DNA of 64,000 nt from an uncultured Phycisphaeraceae bacterium (GCA_964649195.1 CAZYPK010000004.1:8000-71999); one strand, 5' to 3'. Positions 12,198 to 62,833 are shown, counted from the first letter of the stretch. Numbers and translations: made by a program. The notes: generated from the sequence alone by a model not told the origin.

Positions 12198-12211
12198 TCT
12201 TGACGTTCACC
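12114..12211 (+). repeat. attC-like imperfect palindrome c (GCCGAAC ... GTTCACC)
   Basis: Homologous to element b. Arms GCCGACCGGGGCCGCC and GGCGACCCCGGCAGC. The R' box is degenerate. Confidence 0.4.
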
Positions 12212-12238
12212 TACCTGCGATTGCCCTGCAAGCCGGGC
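12205..12238 (+). repeat. R6 duplicate, 5' part of copy 1 (before MITE insertion)
   Basis: GTTCACCTACCTGCGATTGCCCTGCAAGCCGGGC matches 13393-13427 with 2 mismatches. Confidence 0.85.
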
Positions 12239-12451
12239 CGTTTCATTCTTCCTCCCATCACCGGAAGCAAAAGTTCCAAATCGCAAATTCCAAATCTCAA
12301 ACAAACTCGAAAGCGAGCCGAACCGAGGCAAAACCGATCCGAATCCGGATTCTGTTTGATTGCGTTTTTTGTTCTTTGGAGCTTGTTTGGAGTTTGAAGT
12401 TTGTCATTTGGAACTTCCGACAGCGTGGGTGCCGGGGATTAAACAACCCTG
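12239..12451 (+). mobile_element. MITE family R3 (CCAAAT-heptamer foldback), copy 1, inserted in R6 copy 1
   Basis: Absent from the otherwise identical R6 copy 2. Flanked by imperfect direct repeats CAAGCCGGGC and TAAGCCGGC. Internal inverted arms are TTCCAAATCGCAAATTCCAAATCTCAAACAA and TTGTTTGGAGTTTGAAGTTTGTCATTTGGAA. Confidence 0.8.
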
Positions 12452-12460
12452 TAAGCCGGC

Positions 12461-12668
12461 TTCCAAACTTGCATCATTTCCCGGGTTGATTACGCTGTCT
12501 GCATCTTCGTTCGGGAATGTCAGGGGCGGCGGCTTGCCGTTGGGGTTTGTTGCTCGCTTGGTACCCATCTCTGATCAGGGAATCCGTTGCCGCGCACTCC
12601 TTGAGCAGCGAATGCCCCCGTTTTACGCGACATGCCTGTTTGTTAGGCATGACAGGTCGTTTCCCCCT
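12461..12668 (+). repeat. R6 duplicate, 208-bp block, copy 1
   Basis: Identical to 13428-13635 except one T/C difference (GCCTGTTTG versus GCCTGCTTG), by hand alignment. Confidence 0.9.
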
Positions 12669-12766: not shown

Positions 12767-13027
12767 ATGCGAGTTCTGAGCATTGCGTCTGTTCTCTTGG
12801 TTGTTTCCCTCACCGGCTGTGGCGGCTCGGGCGCTGCCGCTGACAAGTACGATCAAGTGGCGGTCGGCATGACACCCGCCCAAGTCGAAGCAATCCTTGG
12901 CCCCGCGAGCAGCACCGTCGAGGAAATCTCAGGCGAGTTAAAGCTTTGGCTCATGGCTGATGGCACACAGGTCGCCATCTCCTTTGAAGATGGCAAGGTG
13001 AAGTCCAAAGATCGCGCGAAGCGATGA
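12767..13027 (+). CDS. Small lipoprotein (SmpA/OmlA-like fold candidate)
   Basis: Strong AAGGAG RBS at 12755-12760. Signal peptide with lipobox LTGC. 86 aa. Confidence 0.7.
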   Translation: MRVLSIASVLLVVSLTGCGGSGAAADKYDQVAVGMTPAQVEAILGPASSTVEEISGELKLWLMADGTQVAISFEDGKVKSKDRAKR

Positions 13028-13151: not shown

Positions 13152-13364
13152 ATGAGTGACATCGATCCAGATGCCATCCTGAATCTTGACCAACTCGAAT
13201 ACAACGAGGAGTTGACACGCTACAAGGCGCAGCAGGACCGTACGGATCAGCAGCAGGATCGACTTGACCGCCAGAACGAACGCTTCGACCGTATCTTGGA
13301 CAAATGGGAAGAGCAGCAACGGCGGATCGATGCGCTACTTGATCGCTTGGAGAAACGCACCTAA
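13152..13364 (+). CDS. Hypothetical 70-aa coiled-coil peptide (candidate cassette ORF)
   Basis: Q/D/R-rich heptad-like sequence. ATG lies 11 nt after the GTTAGGT box of attC-like element e. The TAA stop lies inside the ACCTAAC box of element d. Confidence 0.45.
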   Translation: MSDIDPDAILNLDQLEYNEELTRYKAQQDRTDQQQDRLDRQNERFDRILDKWEEQQRRIDALLDRLEKRT

Positions 13365-13399
13365 CCAGGCGTTGCTGTTGAAACGCTGAACCGTTCACC
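13359..13399 (+). repeat. Short attC-like element d (ACCTAAC ... GTTCACC)
   Basis: The R'' box fits the consensus and contains the TAA stop of the upstream ORF. Stem CAG(G)CGTT/AACGCTG has one bulged G. Followed by the same sequence as element c. Confidence 0.35.
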
Positions 13400-13635
13400 T
13401 ATCTGCGATTGCCCTGCAAACCGGGCCTTCCAAACTTGCATCATTTCCCGGGTTGATTACGCTGTCTGCATCTTCGTTCGGGAATGTCAGGGGCGGCGGC
13501 TTGCCGTTGGGGTTTGTTGCTCGCTTGGTACCCATCTCTGATCAGGGAATCCGTTGCCGCGCACTCCTTGAGCAGCGAATGCCCCCGTTTTACGCGACAT
13601 GCCTGCTTGTTAGGCATGACAGGTCGTTTCCCCCT
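13393..13635 (+). repeat. R6 duplicate, uninterrupted copy 2, upstream of glnN
   Basis: See copy 1. Ends 175 nt before the glnN start codon. Confidence 0.9.
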
Positions 13636-13809
13636 GCGACGCTCGGCGAGACATGATGAATAAACGAATCCATCATATGGCTTTACGTTCGCCGCCGCTG
13701 ACCATCAGAGATGGCATGTTTTTTGCATCTGGAACTTTACAGCCAGGGCTGTGCCCGGCCATGCGTGTCGATTTTGTTCGCAACCCTTTTGGACAGGAGT
13801 GGTCCACCC

Positions 13810-15987
13810 ATGAGTAATGCTCGTCAGGCCGCGATTGCCGCCATCACTGGTTACAAGTCAACGAATCAGGCTCTCAAGTACAAAGAGACGCCTGCTTCGA
13901 CGATTTTCGGCACCAACGTTTTCGGTGATGCCGAGATGAAAAAGCGTCTTCCCAAGTCGGTCTATAAGACCTTGGCGAGGACGATCACCCGAGGCGAAAA
14001 ACTCGACGCCAGTGTCGCCGACATCGTCGCCGCGGCGATGCGCGACTGGGCCATCGAAAAGGGCGCGACCCATTACGCCCACGTCTTTTTTCCCCTCACC
14101 GGCATCACCGCTGAAAAGCATGACTCCTTCCTCGACCCCCAGCCCGACGGCACGGTGCTCGCCGGTTTCTCCGGCAAGGTGCTGATCCAAGGCGAACCCG
14201 ATGCCTCCTCGTTCCCTTCAGGCGGCATCCGCGCCACCTTCGAAGCCCGCGGCTACACCGCATGGGATGTCACCAGCCCTGCCTACATCCTCGAAAATCC
14301 CAACGGCACCACCCTGTGCATCCCCACCGCGTTCGTCTCCTGGACCGGCGAAGCGCTCGACAAGAAGACTCCCGTTCTCCGTTCCATGCAAGCCCTGGCC
14401 AAGCAGGCCGCCCGCATCATCAAGATCTTCGGCAACCCCGATCCCGGTTACATCTACTCCACCGCCGGCCCCGAGCAGGAATATTTCCTGATCGACCGCA
14501 ATTTCTACTTCGCCCGGCCTGACCTGAACATCTGCGGACGATCGCTCTTTGGCGCCAAGCCGCCCAAGGGGCAGGAATTTGAGGATCAATACTTCGGCGC
14601 CATTCCCGAGCGCGTGCTGGCCTGCATGCTCGAAGTGGAACACGAATTGTTCAAACTCGGCGTGCCGGTGAAGACGCGCCATAACGAAGTCGCCCCGTCG
14701 CAGTATGAAATCGCCCCGGTGTTCGAGAACGCCAATGTCGCTGCCGATCATCAGCAGCTTGTCATGATCACGCTCAAGCGCGTCGCCGAGAAATACGGCA
14801 TGGCCTGCCTGCTGCACGAAAAACCCTTCGCCGGGATCAACGGCTCAGGCAAGCACCTCAACTGGTCGCTGGGCGGGCCCAATGTCGGCAACCTGCTCGA
14901 TCCGGGTGAGACCCCTCACGACAACATGCAGTTCCTCGTGTTCTGTGCCGCCGTCATCCGCGCCGTGCACAAATACTCGACGCTGCTTCGTGCCGCGATT
15001 GCTCACGCGGGCAACGATCATCGTCTGGGCGCCAACGAAGCTCCGCCGGCCATCGTTTCGATCTTCCTGGGCGACATGCTCACCGACATTTTCGAGAGCA
15101 TCGAAAAGGGAAAGCTCAAGAGCGGCAAAAAAGCCGGCCACCTCACCGTCGGCGTGGACAGCCTCCCCCCGCTGCCCAAGGACTACGGCGATCGCAACCG
15201 CACCAGTCCGTTCGCCTTCACCGGCAACCGCTTCGAGTTCCGTGCCGTCGGTTCCTCGCAATCCATCAGCGGCCCATTGGTCGTGCTCAACACGATCGTC
15301 GCCGAGTCGCTCGATTACGTCGCCACCGAACTGGAAAAAGCCACCAAGGGCGACCCCAGAAAGCTCAACGACGCCGTTCAGAAAGTCATGCAGGGCATCT
15401 ATAAGGAACACAAGGCCGTCATCTTCAACGGTGACGGCTACTCCGAAGCATGGCACAAGGAAGCCGCCAAACGCGGTCTCCCCAACCTGCCCAACTCCGT
15501 CGATGCGCTGGCGCAACTCATCAGCAAGGGAAACATCGCCCTGCTCGAGAAGTACGGCGTGCTTTCCGAGCGCGAAACCAAGAGCCGTTATGAAATCTAC
15601 CTGGAACGCTACTGCAAGGATGTGGCGACCGAAGGCAGGCTCTGCCTCAACATCGCCAAGACGATGATCCTCCCCTCGGCCTACCGCTATCAGGGCGAAC
15701 TGGCCACCACCGCCGCCGCCATCAAGACCGCCACCGGCTCGGCGGACACCTCCAGCCTTGATGAAGTCACCTCGCTGGTCTCCAAACTGGAGAAAGCCAT
15801 CGCGGGCCTCAACCACGCCATCGCCCACGAAGCCGGCGGATCGGTGCTCGATCACGCCAAGCATTACCGCGATGAGGTCCTCCCGGCCATGCTTGAGGTT
15901 CGCGCCGTGGCCGACGCCCTCGAATCGATCGTCGCCGATGACCTGTGGCCCCTGCCCACCTACCGCGAGATGCTGTTCATTCGCTGA
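13810..15987 (+). CDS. glnN: Glutamine synthetase type III
   Basis: 725 aa, with GSIII-length and conserved blocks ([46 protein letters not shown]). AGGAG RBS precedes the ATG at 13810. Confidence 0.93.
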
Positions 15988-16030: not shown

Positions 16031-16070
16031 CGAACAAAGTTGCTCGCGTATGTAACAGACAAAGACTCTT

Positions 16071-16158
16071 GGGATTCCTGAATAACCGCACGCCCAAGCC
16101 GCTTGCGGTTTCGCGATCCCCTGGTTCACGGGCAATCGGGGGTTATTCAAGAAGTCCT
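16071..16158 (+). repeat. Repeat family R1, copy 2
   Basis: GGGATTCCTGAATAACCGCACGCCCAAGCCGCTTGCGGTTTCGCGATCCCCTGGTTCACGGGCAATCGGGGGTTATTCAAGAAGTCC. Confidence 0.85.
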
Positions 16159-16174
16159 CTTATCAACAGCCCGG

Positions 16175-16206
16175 CCCGAGGATTCAACTCCTCGGGCTTT
16201 TTCTTT
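16175..16206 (+). terminator. Rho-independent terminator candidate downstream of glnN
   Basis: Stem CCCGAGGA/TCCTCGGG, loop TTCAAC, then CTTTTTCTTTG. Confidence 0.6.
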
Positions 16207-16216
16207 GCCTCGCAGC

Positions 16217-16383
16217 AAGCCGCGACTCAACGAGTCGCGGACGTGAACAACCTGAAGCGGCGGAAATCGCGCAGTGACATAAGACCTCGAAAATCGTGAC
16301 CCGTCGGAACGCGGCTTCCTGTCATCCGCGCCGCCTTGCGCGCTTTCAGGCTGTTCGCCTCCGCGACGTGTCACGTCGCGGCT
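16217..16383 (+). repeat. Repeat family R2, copy B (shorter interior)
   Basis: CCGCGAC-TCAACGA-GTCGCGG ACGTGAACAACCTGAAG ... CTTTCAGGCTGTTCGCCT CCGCGAC-GTGTCAC-GTCGCGG. Lies 48 nt upstream of the ABC-F start. Confidence 0.8.
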
Positions 16384-24765: not shown

Positions 24766-24866
24766 GGGATTTCCGAATAACCCCCGATGTACCGTGAACC
24801 AGGGGATCGCGATTTGCGAAGCCGCAAGCGGCTTGGGCGTGAGATTATTCAGGAATCTCAGCACCC
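24766..24866 (-). repeat. Repeat family R1, copy 3 (reverse orientation)
   Basis: The reverse complement matches copy 2 along its length. Lies between the divergent SIS gene and hisA. Confidence 0.85.
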
Positions 24867-28143: not shown

Positions 28144-28185
28144 CACCTGGGCCGGGGCTTCGCGGACTCAGCCCCAGCCACCCGC
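28144..28185 (+). repeat. Repeat family R4, right arm only
   Basis: CACCTGGGCCGGGGCTTCGCGGACTCAGCCCCAGCCACCCGC, directly abutting MITE R3 copy 2. Confidence 0.75.
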
Positions 28186-28186
28186 C

Positions 28187-28372
28187 GTCGGAAGCAAAAA
28201 TTCCAAATCACAAATTCCAAATCTCAAACAAACTCGAAAGCGAGCCGAACCGGGCAAAACCGATCAGAGACCGGATTCCGTTTGATTGCGTTTTTTTGTT
28301 TTTGGATCTTGTTTGGAGTTTGGGCATTTGTCATTTGGAACTTCCGGCAGGTGGCTTGGATACCGGGGGTAC
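28187..28372 (+). mobile_element. MITE family R3, copy 2 (5'-truncated)
   Basis: The core CGGAAGCAAAAATTCCAAATCACAAATTCC...CATTTGGAACTTCCGGCAG is about 90 percent identical to copy 1 by eye. Overlaps the stop of the HEAT gene. Confidence 0.75.
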
Positions 28373-32203: not shown

Positions 32204-32322
32204 GGGTGGCTGGGGCTGAAGGCTCTGCGCAAGCCCCGGCCCAAGGGACCATCAGCGATCAGTTGCCTCACCTTGCTTTGTGCGCCTGGGCCGGGGCTTC
32301 GCGGACTCAGCCCCAGCCACCC
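32204..32322. repeat. Repeat family R4 palindrome (GGGTGGCTGGGGCTGA ... TCAGCCCCAGCCACCC), copy 1, nested in outer inverted repeats 32079-32366
   Basis: Arms GGGTGGCTGGGGCTGAAGGCTCTGCGCAAGCCCCGGCCCAAGG and CCTGGGCCGGGGCTTCGCGGACTCAGCCCCAGCCACCC. Confidence 0.8.
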
Positions 32323-32389
32323 GGACCCCCGGAATAAGTTCTCAGGCTCCGGGCGGGGCTTATTCGAAGTTCAGGCTCGGACATTGCCG

Positions 32390-33738: not shown

Positions 33739-33778
33739 ATAAGAGCCGCGACTCAACGAGTCGCGGAGATGAACAGTC
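33739..33778 (+). repeat. Repeat family R2, solo end E
   Basis: ATAAGAGCCGCGACTCAACGAGTCGCGGAGATGAAC. Confidence 0.7.
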
Positions 33779-33779
33779 T

Positions 33780-33862
33780 GGACTTCCCCACTCCCGGTGG
33801 GCGCGGCGAAAGGACGGCATAATGCTGTCCTTTCGCCGCGCCCACCGGGAGTGGGGAAGTCC
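33780..33862. repeat. Perfect 36-bp-arm palindrome (83 bp)
   Basis: GGACTTCCCCACTCCCGGTGGGCGCGGCGAAAGGAC, then GGCATAATGCT, then GTCCTTTCGCCGCGCCCACCGGGAGTGGGGAAGTCC. Arms verified base by base. Confidence 0.9.
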
Positions 33863-33976
33863 AATTGGTTATTATTTATTCGTTATTGCTTATTTCTTAT
33901 TGAAGGGACGATGGACAGCGGCGAAGGCTGCTCCCCCAATAAGCAATAAGCAATCATCAATAAATAATAACCAATT
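33863..33976. repeat. AT-rich heptamer-periodic inverted repeat
   Basis: Arms AATTGGTTATTATTTATTCGTTATTGCTTATTTCTTATTG and CAATAAGCAATAAGCAATCATCAATAAATAATAACCAATT around a GC-rich 35-nt centre. Confidence 0.85.
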
Positions 33977-34087
33977 GCCTTTCCTGTCCCCTGTTCCCTC
34001 CGACTTCCGACACCCTCAGCCCGTTGGCTACAATGCCGGGTGTCGCAGGAGTTGATTGTTCCTGCCTTGCAACTGAAAGGTGCTCGA

Positions 34088-36637: not shown

Positions 36638-36855
36638 AAGAGCCGCGACTCAACGAGTCGCGGACGTGAACGGCCTGAAGGATGGTCAAACACACCTTCG
36701 ACAGCAGAACTCGAACACGACAGACACCACACTTCGCAACCGGGAGACAACCGGGGGCAACCGGCGGCAACCGCGCGATCGACGCTGATCATCCGCCGCG
36801 CGAAGGACGCCTCTTCAGGCTGTTTACGTCCGCGACGTGTTACGTCGCGGCTCTT
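36638..36855 (+). repeat. Repeat family R2, copy C
   Basis: AAGAGCCGCGACTCAACGAGTCGCGGACGTGAACGGCCTGAAGG ... CTTCAGGCTGTTTACGTCCGCGACGTGTTACGTCGCGGCTCTT. Lies 49 nt upstream of the MDR oxidoreductase start. Confidence 0.85.
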
Positions 36856-36903
36856 ATTCCGTCCATTTCGCTACCATGCACGCGACTTCAAGGAGGCTTC
36901 ACC

Positions 36904-42884: not shown

Positions 42885-45335
42885 TCACTTCACCTCGCCG
42901 AATTTCGCTTCGTAGGCGTTGACGGTTTCCTTCAACGTGTCGAGGGCTTTTTGAATCATCGGGCCTTGCTTGGTGTTCGTCGGGCGGGATTCCATGTTCG
43001 GTTGCAGCCGCTTCATGCTTGCGATGATCGGCCTGGCATCCTTGCCGAGTCTGGCGGCGACCTTGACCATGCCGCTGTTGCCCCATCGGTCGCCGACGAT
43101 CGTCCAGCAGGCCAGGTCCGCATTCAACTCCGGGAAGATTCGCTCGATCGCCGGCAGCAGCGGAATGAGATTCCCCGGCTGTTTGTCCATCTGAACATAA
43201 CGGAGCGTTTCGTAGATGTTGTTCAGATCGATCGGCAGCTTGAAGCCCTTGCGAAGCTCGGCGCGTGCGACCGACTCGGCCATGCCCGTCACGATTTCAT
43301 CCTTGAGCGCCGGGTTCACCTCGATGGCCTTCCTGAACACGGTGGTCGCGCCCCAGCGGCGGCTGGGGAGATTGGTGTCGGCGTCGTAGCTGGCCAGCAT
43401 CGCCGGCAGCGCCGAGCGGAATGTCGCGGTGTCCTTGATCAGCGGGTTCAGCGCTGCGAACGCCGCCGTGCGAAGCCACCACTCCTTTTCATCGAGATAG
43501 GGCGTGATCAAATCGAGGTTGGCGGCAATGGTCCCGGGGTCGCAGCAACTCATGGCCATCAGGGCGTAACGCTTTTCCCACATCGAGGCATCGGGATCCT
43601 TGAGCGGCTTGCATATCTGCGGGAGGAAGTGGGTGTTGATCATCTGCGGCGTGATCCTGCTGACCGTCTTGCCGACGCTCCAGCCGAGGGTGCAACTGAT
43701 CGCATCCAGCCCCGCCACGCGCAGGCGGGCATCGCTGCTGGCCAGCGCCTTCTTGATCTCCGGGATGGCGGCTTCACCCTGAAAGCCCAGGCCGTGCGCC
43801 GCCCATACGCGAAACGACGGCGAGTAATGGCGCATGATCCTGGCGTACCACTCGACGGGCATTTTGATGTTTTTGTCGCTGTTGATGGCCGGATTGCCTC
43901 CCTTGGAGAATGCCGCCGCGATCTCGTGCGGCTCATCCTTGATGATGACTCCATCGATGAAGTCGGTCCGGTGAAAGTCATCGGTCGCCAGGGCCTGCTC
44001 CACCGCCGTGGGCTTGTGTGGCATGCTGAACGGCGTGCGCGGCCTGCCGCAGATTCGCAGGTTCTTCAAATGAGCGGTGTAGGCCATCGCCATCAGACCC
44101 GTCTGGTATTGCGGCGCTTTTCCAATCGGCCCGTAGCCCGGATACCAAGGCGTTCTGAATCCGCCGCCGGGCATGCGGGAAAGTTCGAGGTACCAGATCA
44201 GTTTGTCCTTGTGACGGCGATAGGAATCCATGTGCTGCGCGGGCGCCAGGACATCGACGATGTTTCGCCATGCGATGTTGCCGAAGGTCGAGCCGTGCCC
44301 GGTCTCGCTGTCGAAGTAGGAATCGGTCTCGCTCAGCGCCAGCAGTTGGGCGGCGGCCTGAAACTTTTTGCCGGGCAGGAGCGTCAGCGCCGAGGCCACC
44401 CCGCCGTTCTTGCCGTTGGAAGCGGACCACAATTCGGGCAGATGGTCACCGTAGGGAACACCGCCCCGTCCGGCGAAACGGAAGAAGAACTTCAAGGCGT
44501 TGTCGTAGGTTTTTTCGTTGACCTCCACGCCGCATTCACGGGCGAGCACGATGGTGGTGAACGCCTGGGCGCCCGCGGCATTGACCAGCCCGCCGGTGAC
44601 ATAACCGGGCACGCAGTTCATGGCGCCGTGGCCCCAGCCGCCGTAATACTCGCCGGCGCTGAGCGTGTCGCAACGGGTCTTGAGCGCCGGCAGCACGCGC
44701 TTGTCGCCGGTGGCCAGGTAATACTCGCCGAGAAACATCCCGCTGTAGCCGATGTGCCAGACGCTGCCGCCGGCATTGGCCGCGGCGAGCTTGACCGCGT
44801 ACTTTTCGATGACGGGCAGGTATTTCTTCTCGCCGGTGGAGAGCAGGAACAACCCTTCGAGGTTGCCGGTGATCCCTTCGCCGGGTCCGCCATGCTTGAG
44901 GATGAACGCGGCGGTCTCGTCAACGATCCGCTGTGATTTCTTGCAGTTGGCGGGGTAGGTCGCGCCGTAGCTGCCGATCGGATCGAGCTGGATCACGACC
45001 ACACGCTTCGCCTCGCCGCGACGGATGCTGAACTTCATCTTTCCATCGCGTCCTTCCGCCGCGTTGATGGCGAAGCCCAGCGGATGGCGCGGATCGGTCA
45101 CCTTCAAGGATACGCCATCCACTTCTTCAAGCGCATCCCCTTTGAGGAGCTTGCCATCCGCCGGCGTGCCTGCCGTGACCTGTGTCACGCGCAGCGCCCC
45201 GCCGGTGATCCGGGCGTGGATTCCGGTCACGCCGACCATGAATTCCTCGGTGTCCTTGCCCGCCGGCAGTTCATTGGCCAGCGCCATGCAAGGCATCGCG
45301 GCAAGAAGGAAAATCGAAAGGACTGATCGCTTCAT
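42885..45335 (-). CDS. Secreted large protein with PDZ-like N-terminal domain and HEAT-like C-terminal repeats, hypothetical
   Basis: Start set at 45335 (MKRSVLSIFLLAAMPCMALA signal peptide). GDALEEVDGVSL is a PDZ-type segment. The upstream part of the ORF covers repeat R4. Confidence 0.7.
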   Translation of the reverse strand: MKRSVLSIFLLAAMPCMALANELPAGKDTEEFMVGVTGIHARITGGALRVTQVTAGTPADGKLLKGDALEEVDGVSLKVTDPRHPLGFAINAAEGRDGKMKFSIRRGEAKRVVVIQLDPIGSYGATYPANCKKSQRIVDETAAFILKHGGPGEGITGNLEGLFLLSTGEKKYLPVIEKYAVKLAAANAGGSVWHIGYSGMFLGEYYLATGDKRVLPALKTRCDTLSAGEYYGGWGHGAMNCVPGYVTGGLVNAAGAQAFTTIVLARECGVEVNEKTYDNALKFFFRFAGRGGVPYGDHLPELWSASNGKNGGVASALTLLPGKKFQAAAQLLALSETDSYFDSETGHGSTFGNIAWRNIVDVLAPAQHMDSYRRHKDKLIWYLELSRMPGGGFRTPWYPGYGPIGKAPQYQTGLMAMAYTAHLKNLRICGRPRTPFSMPHKPTAVEQALATDDFHRTDFIDGVIIKDEPHEIAAAFSKGGNPAINSDKNIKMPVEWYARIMRHYSPSFRVWAAHGLGFQGEAAIPEIKKALASSDARLRVAGLDAISCTLGWSVGKTVSRITPQMINTHFLPQICKPLKDPDASMWEKRYALMAMSCCDPGTIAANLDLITPYLDEKEWWLRTAAFAALNPLIKDTATFRSALPAMLASYDADTNLPSRRWGATTVFRKAIEVNPALKDEIVTGMAESVARAELRKGFKLPIDLNNIYETLRYVQMDKQPGNLIPLLPAIERIFPELNADLACWTIVGDRWGNSGMVKVAARLGKDARPIIASMKRLQPNMESRPTNTKQGPMIQKALDTLKETVNAYEAKFGEVK

Positions 45336-45520
45336 CAATAAAAATCTCCGTGGTATAAGGGCGTTCACTGGCCCTGATCTTTGATCCATTCCGGCAATGG
45401 CTCGCCGATGGCCAAGCCGATCCGCGTGTGCCGGATCGGGTTGCCGTGGCAATGATAGGCGTTGTCGGATGTGCCCATCTTTTGCGGCGGCGCGATGAGA
45501 AGTTTTGGGTGAGAAGTTTT

Positions 45521-45637
45521 GGGTGGCTGGGGCTGAGTCCGCGAAGCCCCGGCCCAAGGGACCACCAGCTATCAGTTGCTTCACCTTGCTTCGTGCGCCT
45601 GGGCCTGGGCTTCGCGGACTCAGCCCCAGCCACCCGC
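45521..45637. repeat. Repeat family R4 palindrome, copy 2
   Basis: Near-identical arms to copy 1. Preceded by the tandem GAGAAGTTTTGGGT x2. Ends in CCACCCGC at the junction with the TA cassette 1 leader. Confidence 0.8.
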
Positions 45638-45717
45638 CGGATCGTGACGTTCGCGCTCGGCGCCGGCAGCGGAACCCGCGGGAATTCCCGTGTGATTTCT
45701 GATATCATATTTGCACC
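45638..45717 (+). promoter_or_regulatory. Conserved leader of TA cassette 1 (putative promoter/operator)
   Basis: CGGATCGTGACGTTCGCGCTCGGCGCCGGCAGC...GGGAATTCCCGTGTGATTTCTGATATCATATTTGCACC is homologous to 46670-46758. Contains a TGATATCA palindrome and a TATCAT -10-like hexamer. Confidence 0.5.
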
Positions 45718-45960
45718 ATGGTCACGCTAAACGCCCATTTCGACGGCAAGGTGCTCGTGCCCGACGAGCCGCTGGATTTGCCGGCGAACCAGAAGGTCCG
45801 CATCCAGGTCGAGCCGATCGAAGCCGATCCGAAGCGGACTGACTTCAGCCAATGGATCGGCTTGGCCGCTCATCCGAATCAAAAACCCTATGACCCCGCC
45901 GAGGAAGACGCACTCTGGGAGAAGGGCCCGCTTCGGCAGACCGACTCTCATCCGCGCTGA
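45718..45960 (+). CDS. DUF104/AF2212-like antitoxin, cassette 1
   Basis: MVTLNAHFDGKVLVPDEPLDLPANQKVRIQVEP matches the antitoxin-family pattern. Lies 12 nt upstream of the PIN gene. Confidence 0.8.
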   Translation: MVTLNAHFDGKVLVPDEPLDLPANQKVRIQVEPIEADPKRTDFSQWIGLAAHPNQKPYDPAEEDALWEKGPLRQTDSHPR

Positions 45961-45972
45961 GGATCGCCCGCC

Positions 45973-46356
45973 ATGCCTCTCATCCTCGACACTTCGGCCT
46001 TGATCGCGCTCTACCTCGGCGAGCCGACCGCCACCTGGATCAATGAGCAGATGACCGCCGCCGACCGGTTGCTGATGAGCAGCGTCAACCTGACCGAAAG
46101 TCTCATCATCCTTCGGCAGCGCGTGCCCGAACAGGGCGACGCACTCGCGCAGCGTCTGCTCGCCAGCAGCATCGAGTTCATCCCGCCCGACACCACGCAA
46201 GCGACCGTCGCCGCCCGCGCGCGATTGCAGTATCCGCTCAACCTCGGCGACTGCTTCGCCTACGCGCTGGCGAAAACGCAGAACCTGCCGTTGCTCACGC
46301 TCGACCGGGATTTCCGCGCGACTGATGTTTCAGTCATCCTCCCGCCGCAACCGTGA
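45973..46356 (+). CDS. vapC: PIN-domain toxin (VapC family), cassette 1
   Basis: MPLILDTSALIA, NLTES, LGDCFAYALA and TLDRDF provide the four acidic PIN positions. Confidence 0.88.
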   Translation: MPLILDTSALIALYLGEPTATWINEQMTAADRLLMSSVNLTESLIILRQRVPEQGDALAQRLLASSIEFIPPDTTQATVAARARLQYPLNLGDCFAYALAKTQNLPLLTLDRDFRATDVSVILPPQP

Positions 46357-46365
46357 GCGGAAGAA

Positions 46366-46669
46366 TCAACCACGGTCCGCGTCGTGTCGCCCTCGAACTT
46401 CCAGGCGGCGATGTCGGCCGGGATTCTGCCCCATCATCTGTGCGGCGCCCCTCGGATTGGCTATTCTGTTCATCCTTCACGGCTTACTTGGGCAGGTTTG
46501 GCGGCGTTTGCGAACTCGTGATGTGGGATGATTCTCCCCTTGAATTGAGTTTCCCATGAGCGGATTGCTTCTCATCATCTCCGGCCCTTCGGGCGTCGGC
46601 AAAACGACCATCACGCACCAGGCCGAGCGCGAGCTTCAAGGTGTCTTCAGCGTTTCCATGACCACCCGC
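46366..46669 (+). repeat. 304-bp duplicate A of the gmk upstream region plus first 37 codons
   Basis: By hand alignment to 47530-47833, the 190-bp upstream part is identical. About 5 substitutions all fall in the coding part. Confidence 0.9.
46556..46669 (+). pseudogene. 5' fragment of guanylate kinase (first 37-38 codons), truncated by TA cassette 2
   Basis: MSGLLLIISGPSGVGKTTITHQAERELQGVFSVSMTTR is near-identical to the start of gmk at 47720. Reading continues into the cassette leader (RIVTFTLGAG...). Confidence 0.85.
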
Positions 46670-46758
46670 CGGATCGTGACGTTCACGCTCGGCGCCGGCA
46701 GCACCGGCGGCGGAACATGCGGGAATTCTCGCGTGATCTCCGCTATCATGATTGCATC
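46670..46758 (+). promoter_or_regulatory. Conserved leader of TA cassette 2
   Basis: CGGATCGTGACGTTCACGCTCGGCGCCGGCAGC...GGGAATTCTCGCGTGATCTCCGCTATCATGATTGCATC. Confidence 0.5.
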
Positions 46759-47004
46759 ATGGTCACGTTAAACGCCCATTTCGATGGCAAGGTGATCGTC
46801 CCCGACGAACCGCTGGCCCTGAAGCCCAACCAGAAACTCCGCATCAGCGTCGAGCCGATCGAACCGTCTGCTCCCGGCGAACCGAAGCCCAGGCGAATTC
46901 TTGGCCAGCAGCCCGGCGCCGTCACGTTCCTCGCTCCCGACTGGAACGCGCCGCTTCCTGACGACATCTGGGGCCACAACCAAGACGACGAGCCCAAGCC
47001 ATGA
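46759..47004 (+). CDS. DUF104/AF2212-like antitoxin, cassette 2
   Basis: MVTLNAHFDGKVIVPDEPLALKPNQKLRISVEP. The first roughly 45 codons are about 80-85 percent identical at nucleotide level to cassette 1, judged by eye. Confidence 0.8.
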   Translation: MVTLNAHFDGKVIVPDEPLALKPNQKLRISVEPIEPSAPGEPKPRRILGQQPGAVTFLAPDWNAPLPDDIWGHNQDDEPKP

Positions 47005-47390
47005 GATTGCTCCTGGACTCGCAGGCGTTCATCCTGCTCCTTCAACAGCCCGATTCGCTTCCTTCAGCGGCGCGCGATGCGATGGTCGATCCGGACAACG
47101 AGATGTTTCTCAGCATCGTCACGCCGATCGAATTGCAGATCAAGGTCAACCTCGGGAAACTGAGTTTCGCCCAATCGGTGCGCGAGCACGTCCGGTTCGA
47201 GATTGACCGGGGAAAGTTCGAGTTTCTTCCCATCACCCTCGATCACGCCGACGCGCTCTCCCGTCTGCCCGATCACCATCGCGACCCGTTCGACCGTTTG
47301 CTGATCGCCCAGGCGATGCACGAGAACCTGACCATCGTCACCGGCGATGAGACGATCGCCAGGTATCCCGTGCCCGTGCTTTGGCGGTGA
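47001..47390 (+). CDS. vapC: PIN-domain toxin (VapC family), cassette 2
   Basis: ATGA overlap with the antitoxin. MRLLLDSQAFI, IELQ, HRDPFDRLLIAQA and TGDE motifs. Different PIN subfamily from cassette 1. Confidence 0.85.
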   Translation: MRLLLDSQAFILLLQQPDSLPSAARDAMVDPDNEMFLSIVTPIELQIKVNLGKLSFAQSVREHVRFEIDRGKFEFLPITLDHADALSRLPDHHRDPFDRLLIAQAMHENLTIVTGDETIARYPVPVLWR

Positions 47391-47529
47391 TCACGCCGCC
47401 ATCGACAACCCGCCGGGGATGTTGGTGTTGACCGGCTGGCAGACCGGGCCGTTCTGGGCGCGGGGGTTGAACCGGAACGCCGTCAGCCACACCGTCGCGC
47501 CGTTGACCACGCCGACGGGGAACTCGACA

Positions 47530-47833
47530 TCAACCACGGTCCGCGTCGTGTCGCCCTCGAACTTCCAGGCGGCGATGTCGGCCGGGATTCTGCCCCATCA
47601 TCTGTGCGGCGCCCCTCGGATTGGCTATTCTGTTCATCCTTCACGGCTTACTTGGGCAGGTTTGGCGGCGTTTGCGAACTCGTGATGTGGGATGATTCTC
47701 CCCTTGAATTGAGTTTCCCATGAGCGGATTGCTTCTCATCATCTCCGGCCCTTCGGGTGTCGGCAAAACGACCATCACGCACCAGGTGGAGCGCGAGCTT
47801 CAAGGGGTGTTCAGCGTTTCCATGACCACCCGC
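47530..47833 (+). repeat. 304-bp duplicate B (native gmk promoter and 5' coding region)
   Basis: See duplicate A. Continues into intact gmk. Confidence 0.9.
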
Positions 47834-48304
47834 GCCAAGGCGATGGGCGACAAGGATGGCGTTGATTATCACTTCGTTTCACAGGGCGAGTTCAACCGCG
47901 CCCGTGACAACAATGAACTGCTCGAATGGGCCGAGGTTTATCCGGGGCTCAGTTACGGCACGCCGCGCAAGCCTGTCGAAGATGCGCTGACGCAGGGCAA
48001 ACTGATGATTCTGGAGATTGATGTGGATGGCGCGATGCAGGTGAAGGAGAAGATGCCGCAGGCGTTCTCGATCTTCGTGCTGCCGCCCAATGAGGAAGTG
48101 CTGCTGCAACGGCTTCAGGCGCGCGGACGGGACGATCATTCCGCCATTCAGCGCCGCTTCGCCAAGGCCAAGCGGGAGATCGTCAAGGCGTGGGAAAGCG
48201 GGGTCTATGACGAGTTCATCGTCAACCGCGATCTGACGCAGGCGGTGAAGGAGGCGGTTTCGCTCGTGAGTAAACGTCTGTCCAACGCTACACTGTTCTC
48301 ATGA
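47720..48304 (+). CDS. gmk: Guanylate kinase
   Basis: GPSGVGKTT P-loop, SMTTR, YHFVS and YGTP motifs. 194 aa. Confidence 0.95.
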   Translation: MSGLLLIISGPSGVGKTTITHQVERELQGVFSVSMTTRAKAMGDKDGVDYHFVSQGEFNRARDNNELLEWAEVYPGLSYGTPRKPVEDALTQGKLMILEIDVDGAMQVKEKMPQAFSIFVLPPNEEVLLQRLQARGRDDHSAIQRRFAKAKREIVKAWESGVYDEFIVNRDLTQAVKEAVSLVSKRLSNATLFS

Positions 48305-49914
48305 ACGGCGCTGTCTTCCTCGATCGCGACAACACGATCATCCACAACGATGGTGATCTGGGCGATCCTTCGCAGGTGCGATTGATCCAGGGAGCGGCCT
48401 CCGCCATCGCTTCTCTCAAGGGGCTTAACTACCGCATCATCGTCGTGACCAATCAAGGCGGCGTGGCGCGCGGCAAGTACACGGAGGCGGATGTCGATCG
48501 CGTCAATGAGAAAATCAATGAGCTGATCCGCGCCAACTCCGGCGTGTTCATCGATCGTTTTTATTACTGTCCGTATCACCCGGAGGGCACGGTCGATCGC
48601 TATCGCCGCGATCATCCGTGGCGGAAGCCGCGGCCGGGCATGTTGCTTCAGGCGGCGCGGGATCTGGGGATCGATCTGCGGCAGTCGTGGATGATCGGCG
48701 ATCAGATGCGCGACGTGCAGGCGGGTTTTTCGGCGGGGGTCGTGCCGATTCTGCTTTCGCAGGAGGGCCTCGCGCCGCCGGCGACGAAGGCGCTGCCGCC
48801 GGGCGTGACGCCACCGCCCGATGATCGCACGGCAGCGGCGAAGATGGTGGCCATCGAACCGGTGCGGGATTATTTCATCGTCCGCAGCCTGATCGAAGCG
48901 GTGCGGCTGGTCGGCCAGAAAAGCAGGCCGACGAATGTGACTGTGGCGATGAAGACCGAGCGGATCGAAGTCATCTCCAGGCCGCTGCCTCGCGTGGCGA
49001 CGGCGATGTTTGACGCCCCCGTCACGGGAGCGCAGGAAGAAATCGAATCGATCCGGCAGACGGCGGTGGTGGTCAACGAAGCCGCCACCGAAGCCGCCGC
49101 CACGGAGATTGACACGCCAGGCAACGCCAAACGAAAGAGCCGGAGCGAGAGAGGCAGGAGCGCCAAGGGAACGGATGGCGTCGCATCGGATGATGCCGTC
49201 GCCGCATTCGCATCACCTCTCATCAAGTCCCCTTCCACCGGCAAGGGCATCGAGGAAATCGAATCGAAGGCGGGCGATGATCCTCTGCTGACGCAGCCGC
49301 GAAAGCCAATGACCGAAGCGGCGGTTGCGGCGACGGATGGTTCGCAGGAGACTTCAAGGAGCGAATCACGATCCTCCAAGGCACACCAGCGCAGGCGATC
49401 CACCACGAGCGAACCGGCCGCGAGTGCGGCGGCATCACCGCCGCCATCAACCGTTCCGGCGAAGCTGATCGAATCACCTTCACGCGAAGCCGCTCTGCCT
49501 GCGACCGCTGAATCGCAAAACGTGGCGCACGATGAACCGGCTCCTTCCGCAGGCAATACCCCGGCGCAGGCTTTCAGCGCAACACCTCTGTCACTTCCGC
49601 TTTCGTCTTCATCGCCGCGGCGCACGGAGCCGATGCCTGAGAACGCGACCACCCCTGTCACCGGTTCTTCGCCGATGACCGCCGAGCAGACGCTGCGTCA
49701 GATTCTTCAGGAGCTTCGCAGCCGGCGCAAAGTCGGGGGCGAGTTCACCTATGCCGGGGTGATGGCGATCGTGCTTCAGATGGTGGCGGGCGTCTGCCTG
49801 CTGGCGGGCCTGCTCATGGGTTCGGGCGATGACGGCCTGTTCCTTCGCTGGATGGCCTGCGCGACGCTGCTGCAACTGGCCACGCTGGCGATGCTGCTGT
49901 TGCGCAGGACGTGA
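48301..49914 (+). CDS. gmhB: HAD-IIIA phosphatase (D,D-heptose 1,7-bisphosphate phosphatase-like) with a long low-complexity extension and C-terminal TM helices
   Basis: VFLDRDNT, VVTNQGGVARG, RKPRPGM and IGDQMRDVQAG motifs in the first roughly 170 aa. About 300 aa of A/S/P/T-rich sequence follows, then hydrophobic helices. Confidence 0.8.
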   Translation: MNGAVFLDRDNTIIHNDGDLGDPSQVRLIQGAASAIASLKGLNYRIIVVTNQGGVARGKYTEADVDRVNEKINELIRANSGVFIDRFYYCPYHPEGTVDRYRRDHPWRKPRPGMLLQAARDLGIDLRQSWMIGDQMRDVQAGFSAGVVPILLSQEGLAPPATKALPPGVTPPPDDRTAAAKMVAIEPVRDYFIVRSLIEAVRLVGQKSRPTNVTVAMKTERIEVISRPLPRVATAMFDAPVTGAQEEIESIRQTAVVVNEAATEAAATEIDTPGNAKRKSRSERGRSAKGTDGVASDDAVAAFASPLIKSPSTGKGIEEIESKAGDDPLLTQPRKPMTEAAVAATDGSQETSRSESRSSKAHQRRRSTTSEPAASAAASPPPSTVPAKLIESPSREAALPATAESQNVAHDEPAPSAGNTPAQAFSATPLSLPLSSSSPRRTEPMPENATTPVTGSSPMTAEQTLRQILQELRSRRKVGGEFTYAGVMAIVLQMVAGVCLLAGLLMGSGDDGLFLRWMACATLLQLATLAMLLLRRT

Positions 49915-51262: not shown

Positions 51263-52422
51263 ACATCGCCATCGCCATCGAGCGGTTCGATCCCCTGGCC
51301 TCGGGCATCGAACGATCCACCCATCAGATCGCCACCCACCTGATCGGCAAAGGCCATCGCGTGGCCGTCATCACCGGCGAGGCGCCGCCGGACCTCACGC
51401 TCGACGGCGGAGAAATCATCAACGGAAACACCGTCAACTTCCGCCATCGCGTCAGCGTCTCGGCATTCGCCCGATGGGCGCCATCGGCCTTGGCCCGGCA
51501 ACAGGCCGACATCACGCTCTCCATGTCGATGGCCTGCCCCGCCATGCTCGTCGCGCCGCGCCAAGGGCTGCTGGCGGAACGGATCAAACGCGAAGCGGCC
51601 GCCGGCAACGTGCCACCATCGAAGATGCGCAGCGCCGCATGGCAATGGCTCAATCTGCCCCGGCAAGTCAGCCTCAAGCGGGAGCGCGCGACAGCAGGCA
51701 ACCCCGTCATTCGCAGGTTCATCGCCATCAGTCGTTACGTCGCCAGGCAACTGGAGGAACATCACGACATCCCGCGCGACATGATCGAGCTGATCCCCAA
51801 CGCATCGGAGTTGCCGGTGGTTTCCAACGAGCAGCGCATCAGCCATCGCAGGCGAATTCGATCGGGCTTTCAGGTCGCCGAGGACGCCCTCACCCTGCTC
51901 TTTTTCGCCCAGCACAACTCCCGGCTCAAGGGCATCGATCCCCTGCTGCCGGCGCTGCGCAAGCTCATCGATCAGGGAAGCAACATCACCCTGCTGCTGG
52001 CCGGCCACATCCCCTACCGCGATCAACTGCACATCGCCCGGCTGAACCTCCGCCGGCAGGTTCGCATGATCGGTCCGACGAATCAGATCGCCGAGCTGCT
52101 GTGCGCCACCGACATCACAGCCATGCCTTCGTTCTTCGATCCGTCCGGCAAAATCGTGATCGAGTCGCTGATGATGGGCGTGCCGGTGGTGACCAGCCGA
52201 TACAACGGCGCCGGCGACTTTCTGCATGATGAAGCCGGAAAGGCTTCCGGCCGGATCATCGAAAACCCCGCCGACACCGATGAACTCGCCGCCGCCATCG
52301 CTTCGTTCATCAGTCCCGAATCGCGCCTTGCCTGCCACCAATATGCAGCCCGCTGGCGGGAACAGCTTGCCATGTCGCGGCACGTCGATCAGCTTGAATC
52401 GCTGATGCTGGATTCTGTTTGA
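51259..52422 (+). CDS. Glycosyltransferase family 4 (GT-B)
   Basis: ATGA overlap with the GT9 gene. FFDPSGKIVIESLMMGVPVVTSRYNGAGDFL motif. The last 4 codons and stop are supplied by MITE R3 copy 4. Confidence 0.85.
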   Translation: MNIAIAIERFDPLASGIERSTHQIATHLIGKGHRVAVITGEAPPDLTLDGGEIINGNTVNFRHRVSVSAFARWAPSALARQQADITLSMSMACPAMLVAPRQGLLAERIKREAAAGNVPPSKMRSAAWQWLNLPRQVSLKRERATAGNPVIRRFIAISRYVARQLEEHHDIPRDMIELIPNASELPVVSNEQRISHRRRIRSGFQVAEDALTLLFFAQHNSRLKGIDPLLPALRKLIDQGSNITLLLAGHIPYRDQLHIARLNLRRQVRMIGPTNQIAELLCATDITAMPSFFDPSGKIVIESLMMGVPVVTSRYNGAGDFLHDEAGKASGRIIENPADTDELAAAIASFISPESRLACHQYAARWREQLAMSRHVDQLESLMLDSV

Positions 52423-52514
52423 TTGCGTTTTTTTGTTCTTGGAGCTTGTTTGGAGTTTGAGATTTGTCATTTGGAACTTCCAACAGAGTGGGGGCCGAGA
52501 ATTAAACGACCCTG
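52410..52514 (+). mobile_element. MITE family R3, copy 4 (right half only)
   Basis: GGATTCTGTTTGATTGCGTTTTTTTGTTCTTGGAGCTTGTTTGGAGTTTGAGATTTGTCATTTGGAACTTCC...ATTAAACGACCCTG matches the right half and right end of copy 1. Confidence 0.75.
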
Positions 52515-52634
52515 TTCCGGGCCTCGTTCTCCGTTGCCCGCGCGATCGACGATTGCTACCTTACCGCTTCGCCGCGATCGGTCACACGCCGGCGAATCCT
52601 TATTTCACCGGACCTTTCGTCGAGGAGTCTTTCC

Positions 52635-62400: not shown

Positions 62401-62633
62401 AAGAGGATCGTTTCCGATCGATCCAGCCACCAGCACAAAAGCGGAAACAGGATGACAAACATCAAGAGCGGCCAGGCGCCTTGAAGCGAAACCGGTTGCC
62501 GCCGCGGCGGAAGCAACGCCGTCCGGAAAGAAACGAACCAACTCGATGCCGAGGCACGCATCGCCGCCACCGAGGAAGCCTGCGCTCCGTAACGGCTGTC
62601 GATGGTCCTGGATCGGCGGTCGGATGGAGGCAT
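59496..62633 (-). CDS. Large membrane protein with two VWA domains (Bat/MoxR-operon type)
   Basis: N-terminal TM helices. VVFVVDASASI and AIVVDRSGSM are MIDAS motifs. ISDG/LTDGE motifs. C-terminal TM helix plus charged tail. Confidence 0.85.
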   Translation of the reverse strand: MPPSDRRSRTIDSRYGAQASSVAAMRASASSWFVSFRTALLPPRRQPVSLQGAWPLLMFVILFPLLCWWLDRSETILFTRLWPFGFIAAAPWFWWLGEAGYGNLSRSRAVLALVARFVLLGLFIVALAEPRAVRKDEGLSVVFVVDASASIRPEARDEALRYASRIARGKPEKDQAGLIFFGRSAAVELPPGPTLPIDENSPAMNVQVDYDGTDIAKALSLAAAMLPREKNGRIVLISDGVATEGELAATLDDLKSKGIPVDVMPVVYEYEDEVWLEHLELPRAVKVGEDYNASVVLSSLKKGKGRLRLLENGQPYFEDDVEFGAGKNRFIIPIRLRTAGYYEYTAHIDVEDRKDAAGKIIAVLDHKKENNKAVNHLYLRGKGKVLVVVDDTGDPRDHNRLVESLHTAGREVETQSALEFARDAAALLPYDCIIFANVPAGMFDAQQMEAVHEAVYAQGTGFLMVGGANSFGPGGYHKTAIERTLPVAMDITSRKFLPAGALAIVVDRSGSMMSSFATSPKSKQSVANEAAVAAAKTLFPRDWLGVIAFDTDPLWVVPMSEVENPDAASKQIRTIGPGGGTNMYPALNEAIAALRRLPKGEVAVKHIILLTDGESMPGNDAHVVAQCLDAQITLSTVGIGNDANHAILAPLSRATGGTHYPVNDPRMLPRIFIKEAMTLRRSMIQNVTFTPSVLFPHASLEGIDSIPALDGYVLTSPKPKSQVILRGPIEEEVDPVLAIWRHGLGASAAWTSDLSPNWAANWIQWPKYDPFVKQLITSISRTSDESTLRVRSFVASGQGIIIVEDYGERDAFLAVESYIEGPRGLEATVSLKQVGPNRYEGRFPLKGEGTYKIMTAGASSDGKAQRVHSRLVMPYSQEYMQFRSRPVVLHDIAQKSGGRVLTGGDGETSAFIYAADRTAKRSSAPIIDWVLILLACMIPLDVGLRRVQIDMEMVRAWFTLGRRDQPSEATFNKLRAKKGEVTSALKGRAQAKEKTEPQPAMNIEIGKPPPLPPGVRRDAPSEQVEEAESSTSRLLAAKRRVQEKQ

Positions 62634-62636
62634 GGA

Positions 62637-62700
62637 GGGAGGGAAAAACAGGAAAGCAGGAAAACAGGAAAACAGGAAAACAGGAAATTCAAACCTTCTA
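62637..62700 (+). repeat. CAGGAAAA octamer tandem repeat (related block at 8085-8140)
   Basis: CAGGAAAGCAGGAAAACAGGAAAACAGGAAAACAGGAAATTCAAACC, compared with GCAGAAAAACAGGAAAGCAGGAAATTCAAACC at 8105-8143. Confidence 0.8.
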
Positions 62701-62730
62701 GGACGGTGGCATCATGTCGATTTCCTTCGT

Positions 62731-62833
62731 GGGATTCCTGAATAACCTCACGTCCAAGCCGCTCGCGGCTTCGCTCCCCCCTTCTTCATCGTCGTAGCAA
62801 TCCCCGGTTCACGACATGCACCGGTTATTCATA
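62731..62833 (+). repeat. Repeat family R1, copy 4 (with internal insertion)
   Basis: GGGATTCCTGAATAACCTCACGTCCAAGCCGCTCGCGG...GCAATCCCCGGTTCACGACATGCACCGGTTATTC. Confidence 0.8.

Follow-up and report, generated by a model that had tools for sequence, protein, structure and literature searches.

We analysed a 64,000-nucleotide stretch of DNA from an uncultured Phycisphaeraceae bacterium (GCA_964649195.1, CAZYPK010000004.1:8000-71999; hereafter the window), in which two toxin-antitoxin (TA) cassettes, each pairing a small antitoxin gene with a PIN-domain toxin gene, lie in tandem 5' of gmk, the gene encoding guanylate kinase. We propose that this array probably arose by a tandem duplication of a 1164-bp unit across an 8-bp microhomology, followed by the substitution of a cassette, that is, by a recombinase-independent process taking place around addictive TA cassettes. 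The array itself is real, and an earlier sequence-only reading of the locus described it accurately save for the length of a repeat, the extent of the antitoxin homology and a family label. Over positions 45300-48700 we read, in this order, a minus-strand DUF6288 gene, a palindromic repeat (R4), cassette 1, 8 nt, a first copy of a direct repeat that we call T, cassette 2, 138 nt, a second copy of T leading into gmk, and a HAD hydrolase gene. The best matches of gmk are found in metagenome-assembled genomes (MAGs) of Phycisphaeraceae (Planctomycetota).

The two copies of T, both on the plus strand (46365-46669 and 47529-47833), are identical at 300 of 305 positions (98.4%), and these are the only two copies within the window. 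The sequence-only reading had recognised the duplication and put its length at 304 bp; the duplication stands, and the length is 305 bp. Copy 1 is composed of a 54-nt piece of a gene remnant, the gmk promoter and 5' untranslated region, and gmk codons 1-37 plus two nucleotides of codon 38. Copy 2 is native and runs on into the rest of an intact gmk (47720-48304, plus strand, 194 aa; TIGR03263 with 198.7 bits against a cut-off of 160, and PF00625). The roughly five differences previously placed in the coding part are indeed all there, at 46594, 46623, 46624, 46642 and 46645, corresponding to gmk codons 13-30; the first 229 bp of the two copies are identical and the last 76 nt are 6.6% diverged. 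Judged against relatives, four of the five differences are derived in the stub copy (46365-46669). We also confirmed that the truncated gmk start is fused in frame to leader sequence. The resulting open reading frame (ORF) of 71 aa (46556-46771, plus strand) joins Gmk residues 1-38 to leader-encoded residues, gives weak P-loop matches in Pfam and is probably non-functional.

The octamer CCACCCGC occurs at 45630, 46662 and 47826 with the flanks expected of a simple tandem duplication. At the outer left boundary of the array (45630-45637, plus strand) it consists of the tip of the R4 palindrome, CCACCC, plus GC; in gmk, where it encodes conserved T-T-R codons, it ends the native copy of T (47826-47833) and is followed by GCCAAGG; at the novel junction (46662-46669, plus strand) the T-T-R codons pass directly into leader. 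This junction, ...ATGACCACCCGC|CGGATCGTG (46662-46678), joins the native gmk end to the sequence that follows the palindrome (45630-45646), and its 8 bp are shared with the outer left boundary, ...CAGCCACCCGC|CGGATCG.... By simple arithmetic from a GC content of 0.62, the chance of an 8-nt match at a duplication junction is about 2e-5. Since the novel junction is made of a unit end and a unit start with 8 bp of microhomology, it carries the signature of a head-to-tail duplication.

Microhomology-mediated (RecA-independent) tandem duplication and replicative template switching are established in bacteria. The locus resembles a microhomology-mediated tandem duplication in its head-to-tail units, in a junction composed of unit end plus unit start, and in the 8 bp common to the outer boundary, and it differs in the interiors of the units. 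The two units, of 1032 bp (45638-46669) and 1164 bp (46670-47833), are nearly identical at their ends, whereas their interiors are unrelated from about antitoxin codon 37 up to T. Therefore, a second event beyond tandem duplication is required. The earlier reading had argued that duplication and point divergence cannot explain such a mosaic, and the unrelated interiors between near-identical ends bear this out. Its preference for microhomology-mediated recombination of modular TA cassettes also finds support; its dismissal of simple tandem duplication does not, because duplication is part of the answer.

The modular nature of the cassettes is seen in their genes, all four of which are on the plus strand. 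Antitoxin 1 (80 aa, 45718-45960) and antitoxin 2 (81 aa, 46759-47004) have in common a conserved N-terminal domain of 35 aa, 29 residues of which are identical, and carry C-termini of two separate, widespread classes (A in antitoxin 1, B in antitoxin 2). The toxins are a VapC-like PIN protein of 127 aa in cassette 1 (45973-46356; PF01850, E=1.3e-22) and a PIN protein of 129 aa and HxRDPFDR type in cassette 2 (47001-47390; PF01850, E=2.5e-16). As had been stated before, they are of different kinds, with no BLASTP similarity between them (E=4.1). Across the antitoxin family, proteins whose C-termini fall into two or more unrelated classes are 80-89% identical in the N-terminal domain, and the 5' module of cassette 2 is 89.6% identical to the corresponding module of a cassette-1-type locus of another organism. 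Over the whole cassette, DNA identity to foreign relatives reaches 71% for cassette 1 and 76% for cassette 2 (L137), and homology to the closest foreign cassettes stops at the PIN stops or within 8 nt of them (L136 at 46354, L137 at 47398). Judging from these comparisons, the module formed by promoter and antitoxin N-terminus is clearly exchangeable between cassettes. At another locus (L114, 3195-3798), the same antitoxin N-domain is paired with a PemK/MazF toxin instead of a PIN toxin.

The polarity of the events can be read from the DNA between cassette 2 and gmk. The 138 nt found there (47391-47528), previously described as 139 unique bp, are indeed present only at this place, but they are not an anonymous spacer: they are the 3' codons of a minus-strand gene remnant (47391-47582), convergent with cassette 2, that keeps the last 63 codons and the stop of a 168-aa protein family. 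The remnant encodes ADIAAWKFEGDTTRTVVDVEFP...GGLSMAA plus stop, and matches the end of the 168-aa protein P0228 with 86% identity over 63 aa (E=2e-38) and an ORF at locus L053 with 55% identity; the family has no Pfam or PHROGs match. The inner 54 nt of the remnant lie inside T, at 47529-47582 and again at 46365-46418. In copy 1 this piece starts 8 nt past the PIN1 stop, and the terminal 138 nt of the remnant are missing. Since copy 1 keeps only the inner 54 nt, it derives from a copy-2-like unit, and since the right breakpoint falls inside a gene remnant, its position is arbitrary and illegitimate. On the left, the near-identity of the leaders falls to 82% at about -42 to -51 from the ATG, which is the edge of the module common to the cassettes. 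Furthermore, cassette 2 faces the 3' end of the remnant in the same convergent layout that its relatives show at intact genes. In L053 (3-1670), about 530 nt separate a cassette-1-like module, with a PIN gene like PIN1, from the 3' end of a full-length member of the 168-aa family. This arrangement suggests that one and the same neighbourhood houses different cassettes of the family, depending on the lineage.

Taken in sequence, the events would have been as follows. Originally, cassette 2 (VapBC-like) would have been convergent with the 3' end of a small minus-strand gene, and a rearrangement would have truncated this gene and set its last 63 codons against the gmk promoter. The 1164-bp unit, comprising the distal leader, cassette 2, the remnant, the gmk promoter and codons 1-37, would then have been duplicated head to tail, through a template switch or an illegitimate recombination event that linked two copies of CCACCCGC, one formed by the palindrome tip plus GC and the other by the Gmk T-T-R codons. 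The products would have been a complete gmk on the downstream side and a gmk stub that keeps the promoter and is fused to leader sequence. In a second step, the part of the upstream unit from the proximal leader to 138 nt past the PIN2 stop would have been replaced by cassette 1, a member of the same family. The two steps could also have taken place in the reverse order, if two alleles recombined. Once formed, the 305-bp repeats would offer a substrate for homologous recombination that removes cassette 2; release of the toxin upon such a loss would be selected against, which may explain the persistence of the array. The locus also illustrates how duplication can redirect the promoter of an essential gene, so that it would read into a toxin operon.

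The pattern expected of the second step, with a left end at the edge of a family-conserved module and an illegitimate right end, would be that of homology-facilitated illegitimate recombination, a process with one homologous anchor and one illegitimate end that is described for Acinetobacter and Streptococcus pneumoniae. As in that process, the replaced segment starts at a module edge of 82-90% identity and ends at a non-homologous join in the remnant. In contrast to that process, the left boundary coincides with the outermost edge of the homology instead of falling inside it, and the event is here read from sequence.

Several observations weigh against this two-step account. We found no donor copy of cassette 1 and no allele with a single unit, and steps 1 and 2 can therefore not be ordered. 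Six of the eight bases of the microhomology belong to the repeat element, so that an element-linked process is possible. All the evidence comes from one assembly, and we infer the mechanism of the substitution, with its one homologous and one illegitimate end, from the boundaries only. Finally, the five mismatches of T cluster in its last 76 nt, with none in the first 229 (P ~0.004, by arithmetic). Since plain drift would not be expected to produce such clustering, a further process is needed: the promoter part may have been homogenised by gene conversion, or synthesis at the junction may have been error-prone.

The same final structure would result from an import of DNA. Here, a circle or fragment composed of leader, cassette 2, remnant and T, excised or joined at CCACCCGC and coming from a strain with cassette 2 only, would have integrated within T beside cassette 1 in a Campbell-type event. 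Such an origin would account for the small number of differences, allelic in appearance, that separate the two T copies and the two leaders. Moreover, long flanking repeats are common around cassettes of this family, and a similar cycle has been hypothesised for restriction-modification (R-M) systems (PMC2853133). However, two pre-existing alleles and a gene transfer would be needed, and the cassette-1 allele would itself have to stem from the cassette-2 allele, given the 54 nt of remnant that it keeps, which makes this scenario no more economical. No single-cassette allele was seen and no plasmid or viral carrier was found, the plasmid and viral collections holding no relative of the antitoxins. 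We consider an import unlikely.

We also asked whether the tandem could be an assembly artefact, two strain alleles having been chained into a false array. The source is probably a metagenome-derived contig, and the same-strain contig in Logan breaks at 47529. Among the exact-product look-ups, PIN1, PIN2, antitoxin 1 and the fusion ORF gave nothing and only gmk returned a same-strain contig; the exact PIN and antitoxin products are not indexed in that Logan sample. The start of this independent contig coincides precisely with the left edge of T, which would fit a fork at that position and proves little. The gmk|leader join, however, shares only 8 nt, which should be far below any assembler k-mer, and the T copy at the junction has five private variants, while the second leader has a private variant and a 9-nt indel. 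These could not be produced by chaining alleles that share T, and we regard an artefact as most improbable.

The relatives of the source organism give a view of gmk outside the array. In L123-L128, L131 and L132, whose Gmk is 90-93% identical, pyrB lies directly 5' of a single gmk, with no TA genes and no duplicate, and in L133 and L134 (Gmk 95%, short contigs) a small membrane ORF lies 5' of a single gmk, likewise with no TA genes and no duplicate. The two cassettes are thus not shared by relatives with Gmk identities of 90-95%, contrary to what an old shared duplication would leave. In these relatives, only the gmk part of T can be aligned (86-92%), the upstream part being lineage-specific, and we saw no site among them that is cleanly empty over all of T. 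Gene order is shared with L123 between the gmk start and 57.5 kb (gmk, HAD hydrolase, glycosyltransferases onward), and this synteny breaks off at gmk. Compared with L123, L131 and L132, it holds from 47719 on, and the ancestral pyrR-pyrB is missing upstream in the window. Because synteny begins at the gmk start and pyrR-pyrB is missing, the TA array sits at a rearrangement breakpoint.

In L002, the closest species representative in the genome collection (Gmk 90%), gmk has a duplication of its own (7722-9017), in which codons 1-43 are repeated over 129 nt (97%) with a different junction. The duplication brackets a DUF2281-type antitoxin gene (7880-8116) and an apparently frameshifted PIN gene (8113-8442 plus a downstream frame), and the locus looks like a decaying cassette at the same target gene. 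We noticed a CGGATC after the gmk stub of L002; it is partly alignable to gmk, shows no similarity beyond, and was treated as chance. By these comparisons, the array is young and lineage-specific, and the gmk 5' end of a neighbouring lineage has undergone an independent event.

In L133 (1-344), L134 (123-359) and L002 (8651-8888), the neighbour of gmk on its 5' side is a small ORF of about 78 aa, predicted to encode a membrane protein. The 3' part of this ORF carries CTGTGCGG...GGATTGGCTATyCT, a stretch conserved 5' of gmk and also found in T of the window, which is possibly the gmk promoter. We had considered the left part of T as a remnant of this membrane ORF, with a left breakpoint common to the window and L002. 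This was ruled out, as the upstream parts are 48-55% identical for all pairs and the minus strand of the first 54 nt of T codes for the piece of the 168-aa family.

An ancient tandem duplication of a single cassette is hard to reconcile with these data. According to it, the two cassettes would have diverged in place, and gene conversion from the selected gmk would have kept T and the distal leader alike. The L002 duplicate, whose coding part is 97-98% identical and whose upstream part is about 55% identical, illustrates that uneven divergence can occur, and the contrast within T between its identical first part and its diverged end is of the kind that gene conversion might leave. Nevertheless, the PIN proteins have no detectable similarity, each cassette is nearer to foreign cassettes than to the other one, and the antitoxin C-termini fall into two classes that are both widespread. 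Copy 1, moreover, is without the 138 nt of remnant, and the close relatives are without the array. We find an ancient duplication very unlikely.

We then considered the leaders, which the sequence-only reading had taken as a sign of insertion at a preferred site. As it had reported, both cassettes begin with CGGATCGTGACGTTC directly after CCACCCGC (45630-45652 and 46662-46684). The leaders agree over 31 nt with one mismatch, are then interrupted by a 9-nt indel, and continue with about 82% identity over 163 nt as far as antitoxin codon 36-38, with no DNA homology beyond. The claimed homology of leaders and antitoxin starts is therefore genuine, but it reaches codon 36-38 and not the first ~45 codons. 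In cassette 1, the distal leader (45638-45676, plus strand; 31 nt with one mismatch to 46670-46700) is locus-specific and lies outside the cassette family, and the proximal leader (45677-45717, plus strand) contains the palindrome CGCGGGAATTCCCGTG, a putative operator, and a TG-extended -10-like box, TGATATCAT, with a presumed promoter role. The leader of cassette 2 (46670-46758, plus strand) consists of the second distal copy, the 9-nt insertion and the proximal promoter/operator part. A scan for sigma-70 consensus promoters found none.

To place these leaders in context, 80 loci encoding relatives of the antitoxins were taken from metagenomes, together with the closest homologues of each cassette. 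Among the 74 family loci with enough upstream sequence, none has CCACCCGC within 160 nt 5' of the antitoxin gene, and none has the distal leader (CGGATCGTGACGTTCRCGCTCGGCGCCGGCA) upstream of it, nor do the closest cassette homologues. CGGATCG was met upstream in three loci (two of them distinct), amid unrelated sequence and without the remaining leader, and was treated as chance. By blastn, similarity to the leaders of the window starts 17-26 nt 5' of the ATG (17-24 nt for the closest foreign cassettes, for which it extends to about 50 nt by eye), and family-wide conservation is limited to a TGTGnTATCAT box beside the ATG. Since the distal leader and the octamer are absent from the family loci, the distal leader is not the end of a mobile element; in our reading, it is a local sequence that was duplicated.

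These results bear on the idea that a trans-acting recombinase or transposase inserted leader-bearing cassettes 3' of CCACCCGC in two independent insertions. In its favour, both cassettes open with the same 15-31 nt right after the same octamer, and a further octamer, presented earlier as a third junction, abuts another repeat at 28178. The latter is in fact one more copy of the palindromic repeat, with an arm ending ...CAGCCACCC(G), and, being part of this repeat, it is not independent evidence. The octamer occurs eight times in the 64-kb window, and there is no cassette at the other sites. Likewise, no further junction involving the leader or the octamer exists among the 74 family loci. Insertion into gmk alone cannot create a 305-bp duplication; the right ends of the cassettes differ, one of them lying inside a gene remnant; there is no recombinase gene between the repeats; and the repeats that bracket cassettes elsewhere come from different host genes, which leaves no common target. 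A site-preferring insertion thus has little to commend it, and we hold it to be very improbable, our preferred explanation remaining microhomology-mediated duplication with subsequent substitution.

R4 itself (115 nt, 45521-45635, no strand) resembles repetitive extragenic palindromes (REPs) and miniature inverted-repeat transposable elements (MITEs). It has 36-nt arms that are 97% complementary and a 43-nt loop, and its right arm ends ...CAGCCACCC. Copies or half copies of the element are also present at 28148-28184 and 32231-32323. At the left edge of R4, a 14-nt sequence is tandemly duplicated (TGAGAAGTTTTGGG x2, 45496-45523), and because the 32.2-kb copy has a single GAGAACTTTTGGG, it is the element's own end that is duplicated in R4. 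In Rfam, sub-threshold hairpin matches to R4 were obtained in the window only, with none in L090, L079, L054 or L075, and a tRNA scan found nothing.

The locus at gmk is not the only one at which a cassette of this family lies between duplicated sequences. We compared each of the 80 family loci with itself and used 6181 positions in 680 kb of control loci as controls. Nine loci have bracketing direct repeats of 44-105 nt, 85-99% identical and 0.4-1.7 kb apart (L075 and L076 being one locus), and bracketing was found for 7 of the 30 cassettes with adequate flanks versus 36 of the 6181 control positions (0.6%). According to this quick survey, duplicated ends of host genes appear to flank roughly one in four related cassettes. 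The repeats correspond, in L086, to the last 26 codons of a MacB/FtsX permease gene and, in L102, where they enclose two TA pairs, to about 350 nt at the 3' end of hslU. In L075, L050, L114 (45-nt repeat) and L054 they are the 3' ends of genes for, respectively, a TIG-domain protein, a ComM-like protein, a Y-family polymerase and a membrane protein. The repeat of L083 is a partial duplicate of another antitoxin gene, and those of L090 and L079 were matched to no gene end. No tRNA, Rfam family or recombinase is involved in the bracketing repeats. Repeats in the control locus L004 were examined as a candidate target duplication and ruled out, because they belong to a REP/MITE-like palindrome present in several copies. 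Since short-read assemblies tend to break at repeats longer than k, the survey probably misses some long duplications such as the 305-bp one.

A precedent exists in R-M systems, whose insertion with long target duplication has been described (Nobusato et al. 2000, Gene 259:99; Furuta, Abe & Kobayashi 2010, PMC2853133; reviewed in PMC3874152). There, repeats of 46 to ~420 bp represent a duplicated target, often over a host-gene end, with empty sites in related genomes, and both allelic substitution by other modules and tandem amplification through the repeats have been described (PMC2853133, PMC3874152). How the R-M duplications form was not settled, breakage of DNA by the restriction enzyme being one proposal (PMC2853133, PMC3874152). 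When the standards set by Furuta et al. 2010 are applied, the insert between the two copies of T (859 nt, 46670-47528) consists of leader, antitoxin gene, PIN gene and the 138-nt remnant, holds no mobility gene and is shorter than 20 kb, and T, at 305 bp, is longer than 30 bp and non-multicopy. Like the R-M cases, ours concern an addiction module with no linked mobility gene and with variable direct repeats (44-305 bp here) of host-gene ends. They differ in that the cargo is a TA system, and in that the 8-bp microhomology and the tandem units allow a specific route to be proposed. Since PIN and MazF toxins are RNases, the suggestion of breakage by a restriction enzyme does not transfer to TA.

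We also compared the array with integron cassettes and integrase islands, which it resembles in having compact TA cassettes in arrays and direct repeats that restore a host-gene end. In contrast to these, it has no integrase, no attC-like site and no tRNA or non-coding RNA target, and the bracketing repeats differ at each locus and enclose 0.4-1.7 kb. Independent loci of the family have no site in common, and the array has no recombinase, in contrast to site-specific cassette systems. In the literature collection that we searched, we retrieved R-M papers only, and no report of long target duplication or microhomology duplication for TA systems. We regard the gmk array as one instance of a wider association between TA cassettes and long duplications of host-gene ends, and this association as a variant of the phenomenon known for R-M.

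On this basis, we tentatively suggest that compact type II TA cassettes of this family might spread in a recombinase-free manner into host-gene ends, with target duplications of 45 to more than 300 bp. If this is true, the flanking repeats would later serve amplification, excision and cassette swapping, while the toxin would penalise loss, and the gmk array would be a snapshot of a cycle of insertion, duplication and substitution. How chromosomal TA systems move without transposases or integrases is poorly understood, and the locus displays the individual scars: a microhomology junction of 8 bp, a carried-along piece of a neighbouring gene, and a swap at the module of promoter and antitoxin N-terminus. 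Should the pattern be general, TA would share with R-M a mode of invasion that spares the target gene and leaves unstable repeats that the toxin stabilises. Behind the pattern there may be a dedicated mechanism, or else random illegitimate events among which selection retains those that by chance leave the target gene intact.

With regard to the cassettes as TA systems, both toxins exceed the PF01850 cut-off of 23.6 bits (81.1 bits for PIN1 and 60.8 bits for PIN2), and reading the translations we found the acidic residues D6/E42/D93/D111 in PIN1 and D6/E44/D98/D116 in PIN2. The antitoxin gene lies directly 5' of the toxin gene, with a 12-nt gap in cassette 1 (45960/45973) and a 4-nt overlap between the antitoxin 2 stop and the PIN2 start in cassette 2 (47001-47004); such antitoxin-PIN gene pairs are also present in L136, L137, L054 and L053. 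The cassettes resemble type II TA systems of the VapBC kind in this gene order, in their intact acidic residues, in the upstream palindrome and in the -10-like box. They differ in the N-domain of the antitoxin, which by Pfam is not the usual VapB DNA-binding fold and is AF2212-like below threshold, and their activity is predicted.

The DUF104 label given earlier to the antitoxins does not hold at the Pfam threshold: antitoxin 1 scores 13 bits against PF01954 (AF2212-like), with a threshold of 21.6 (E=0.15), and antitoxin 2 has no match. Weak PF01954 matches were obtained for 9 of 37 members of the antitoxin family (best E=0.0034), and it is possible that the antitoxins are remote AF2212-like/DUF104 relatives, not members by that threshold. 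A profile search of PDB sequences with the antitoxin retrieved nothing, and the AlphaFold2 model of antitoxin 1 is weak (mean predicted local distance difference test, pLDDT, of 68; predicted template modelling score, pTM, of 0.28).

Elsewhere in the window, other families of short palindromic or MITE-like repeats and microsatellites of the AAAACAGG type are scattered through the intergenic regions, for instance at 9624-9997, 16067-16383, 24775-24860, 28178-28322, 33739-33984, 36638-36857, 52390-52515 and 62625-62790. A second long duplication of about 245 nt (12203-12668 and 13391-13635) comprises 209 nt with a single T/C mismatch and 36 nt of about 90% identity; its copy A is split by a MITE of about 220 nt (12239-12459). 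It lies just 5' of a type III glutamine synthetase gene (13711-15987) and encloses 722 nt, which contain an ORF for a BamE-like small lipoprotein (12767-13027) and a 70-aa coiled-coil ORF (13152-13364). The architecture is as at gmk, and the cargo is no recognisable TA pair.

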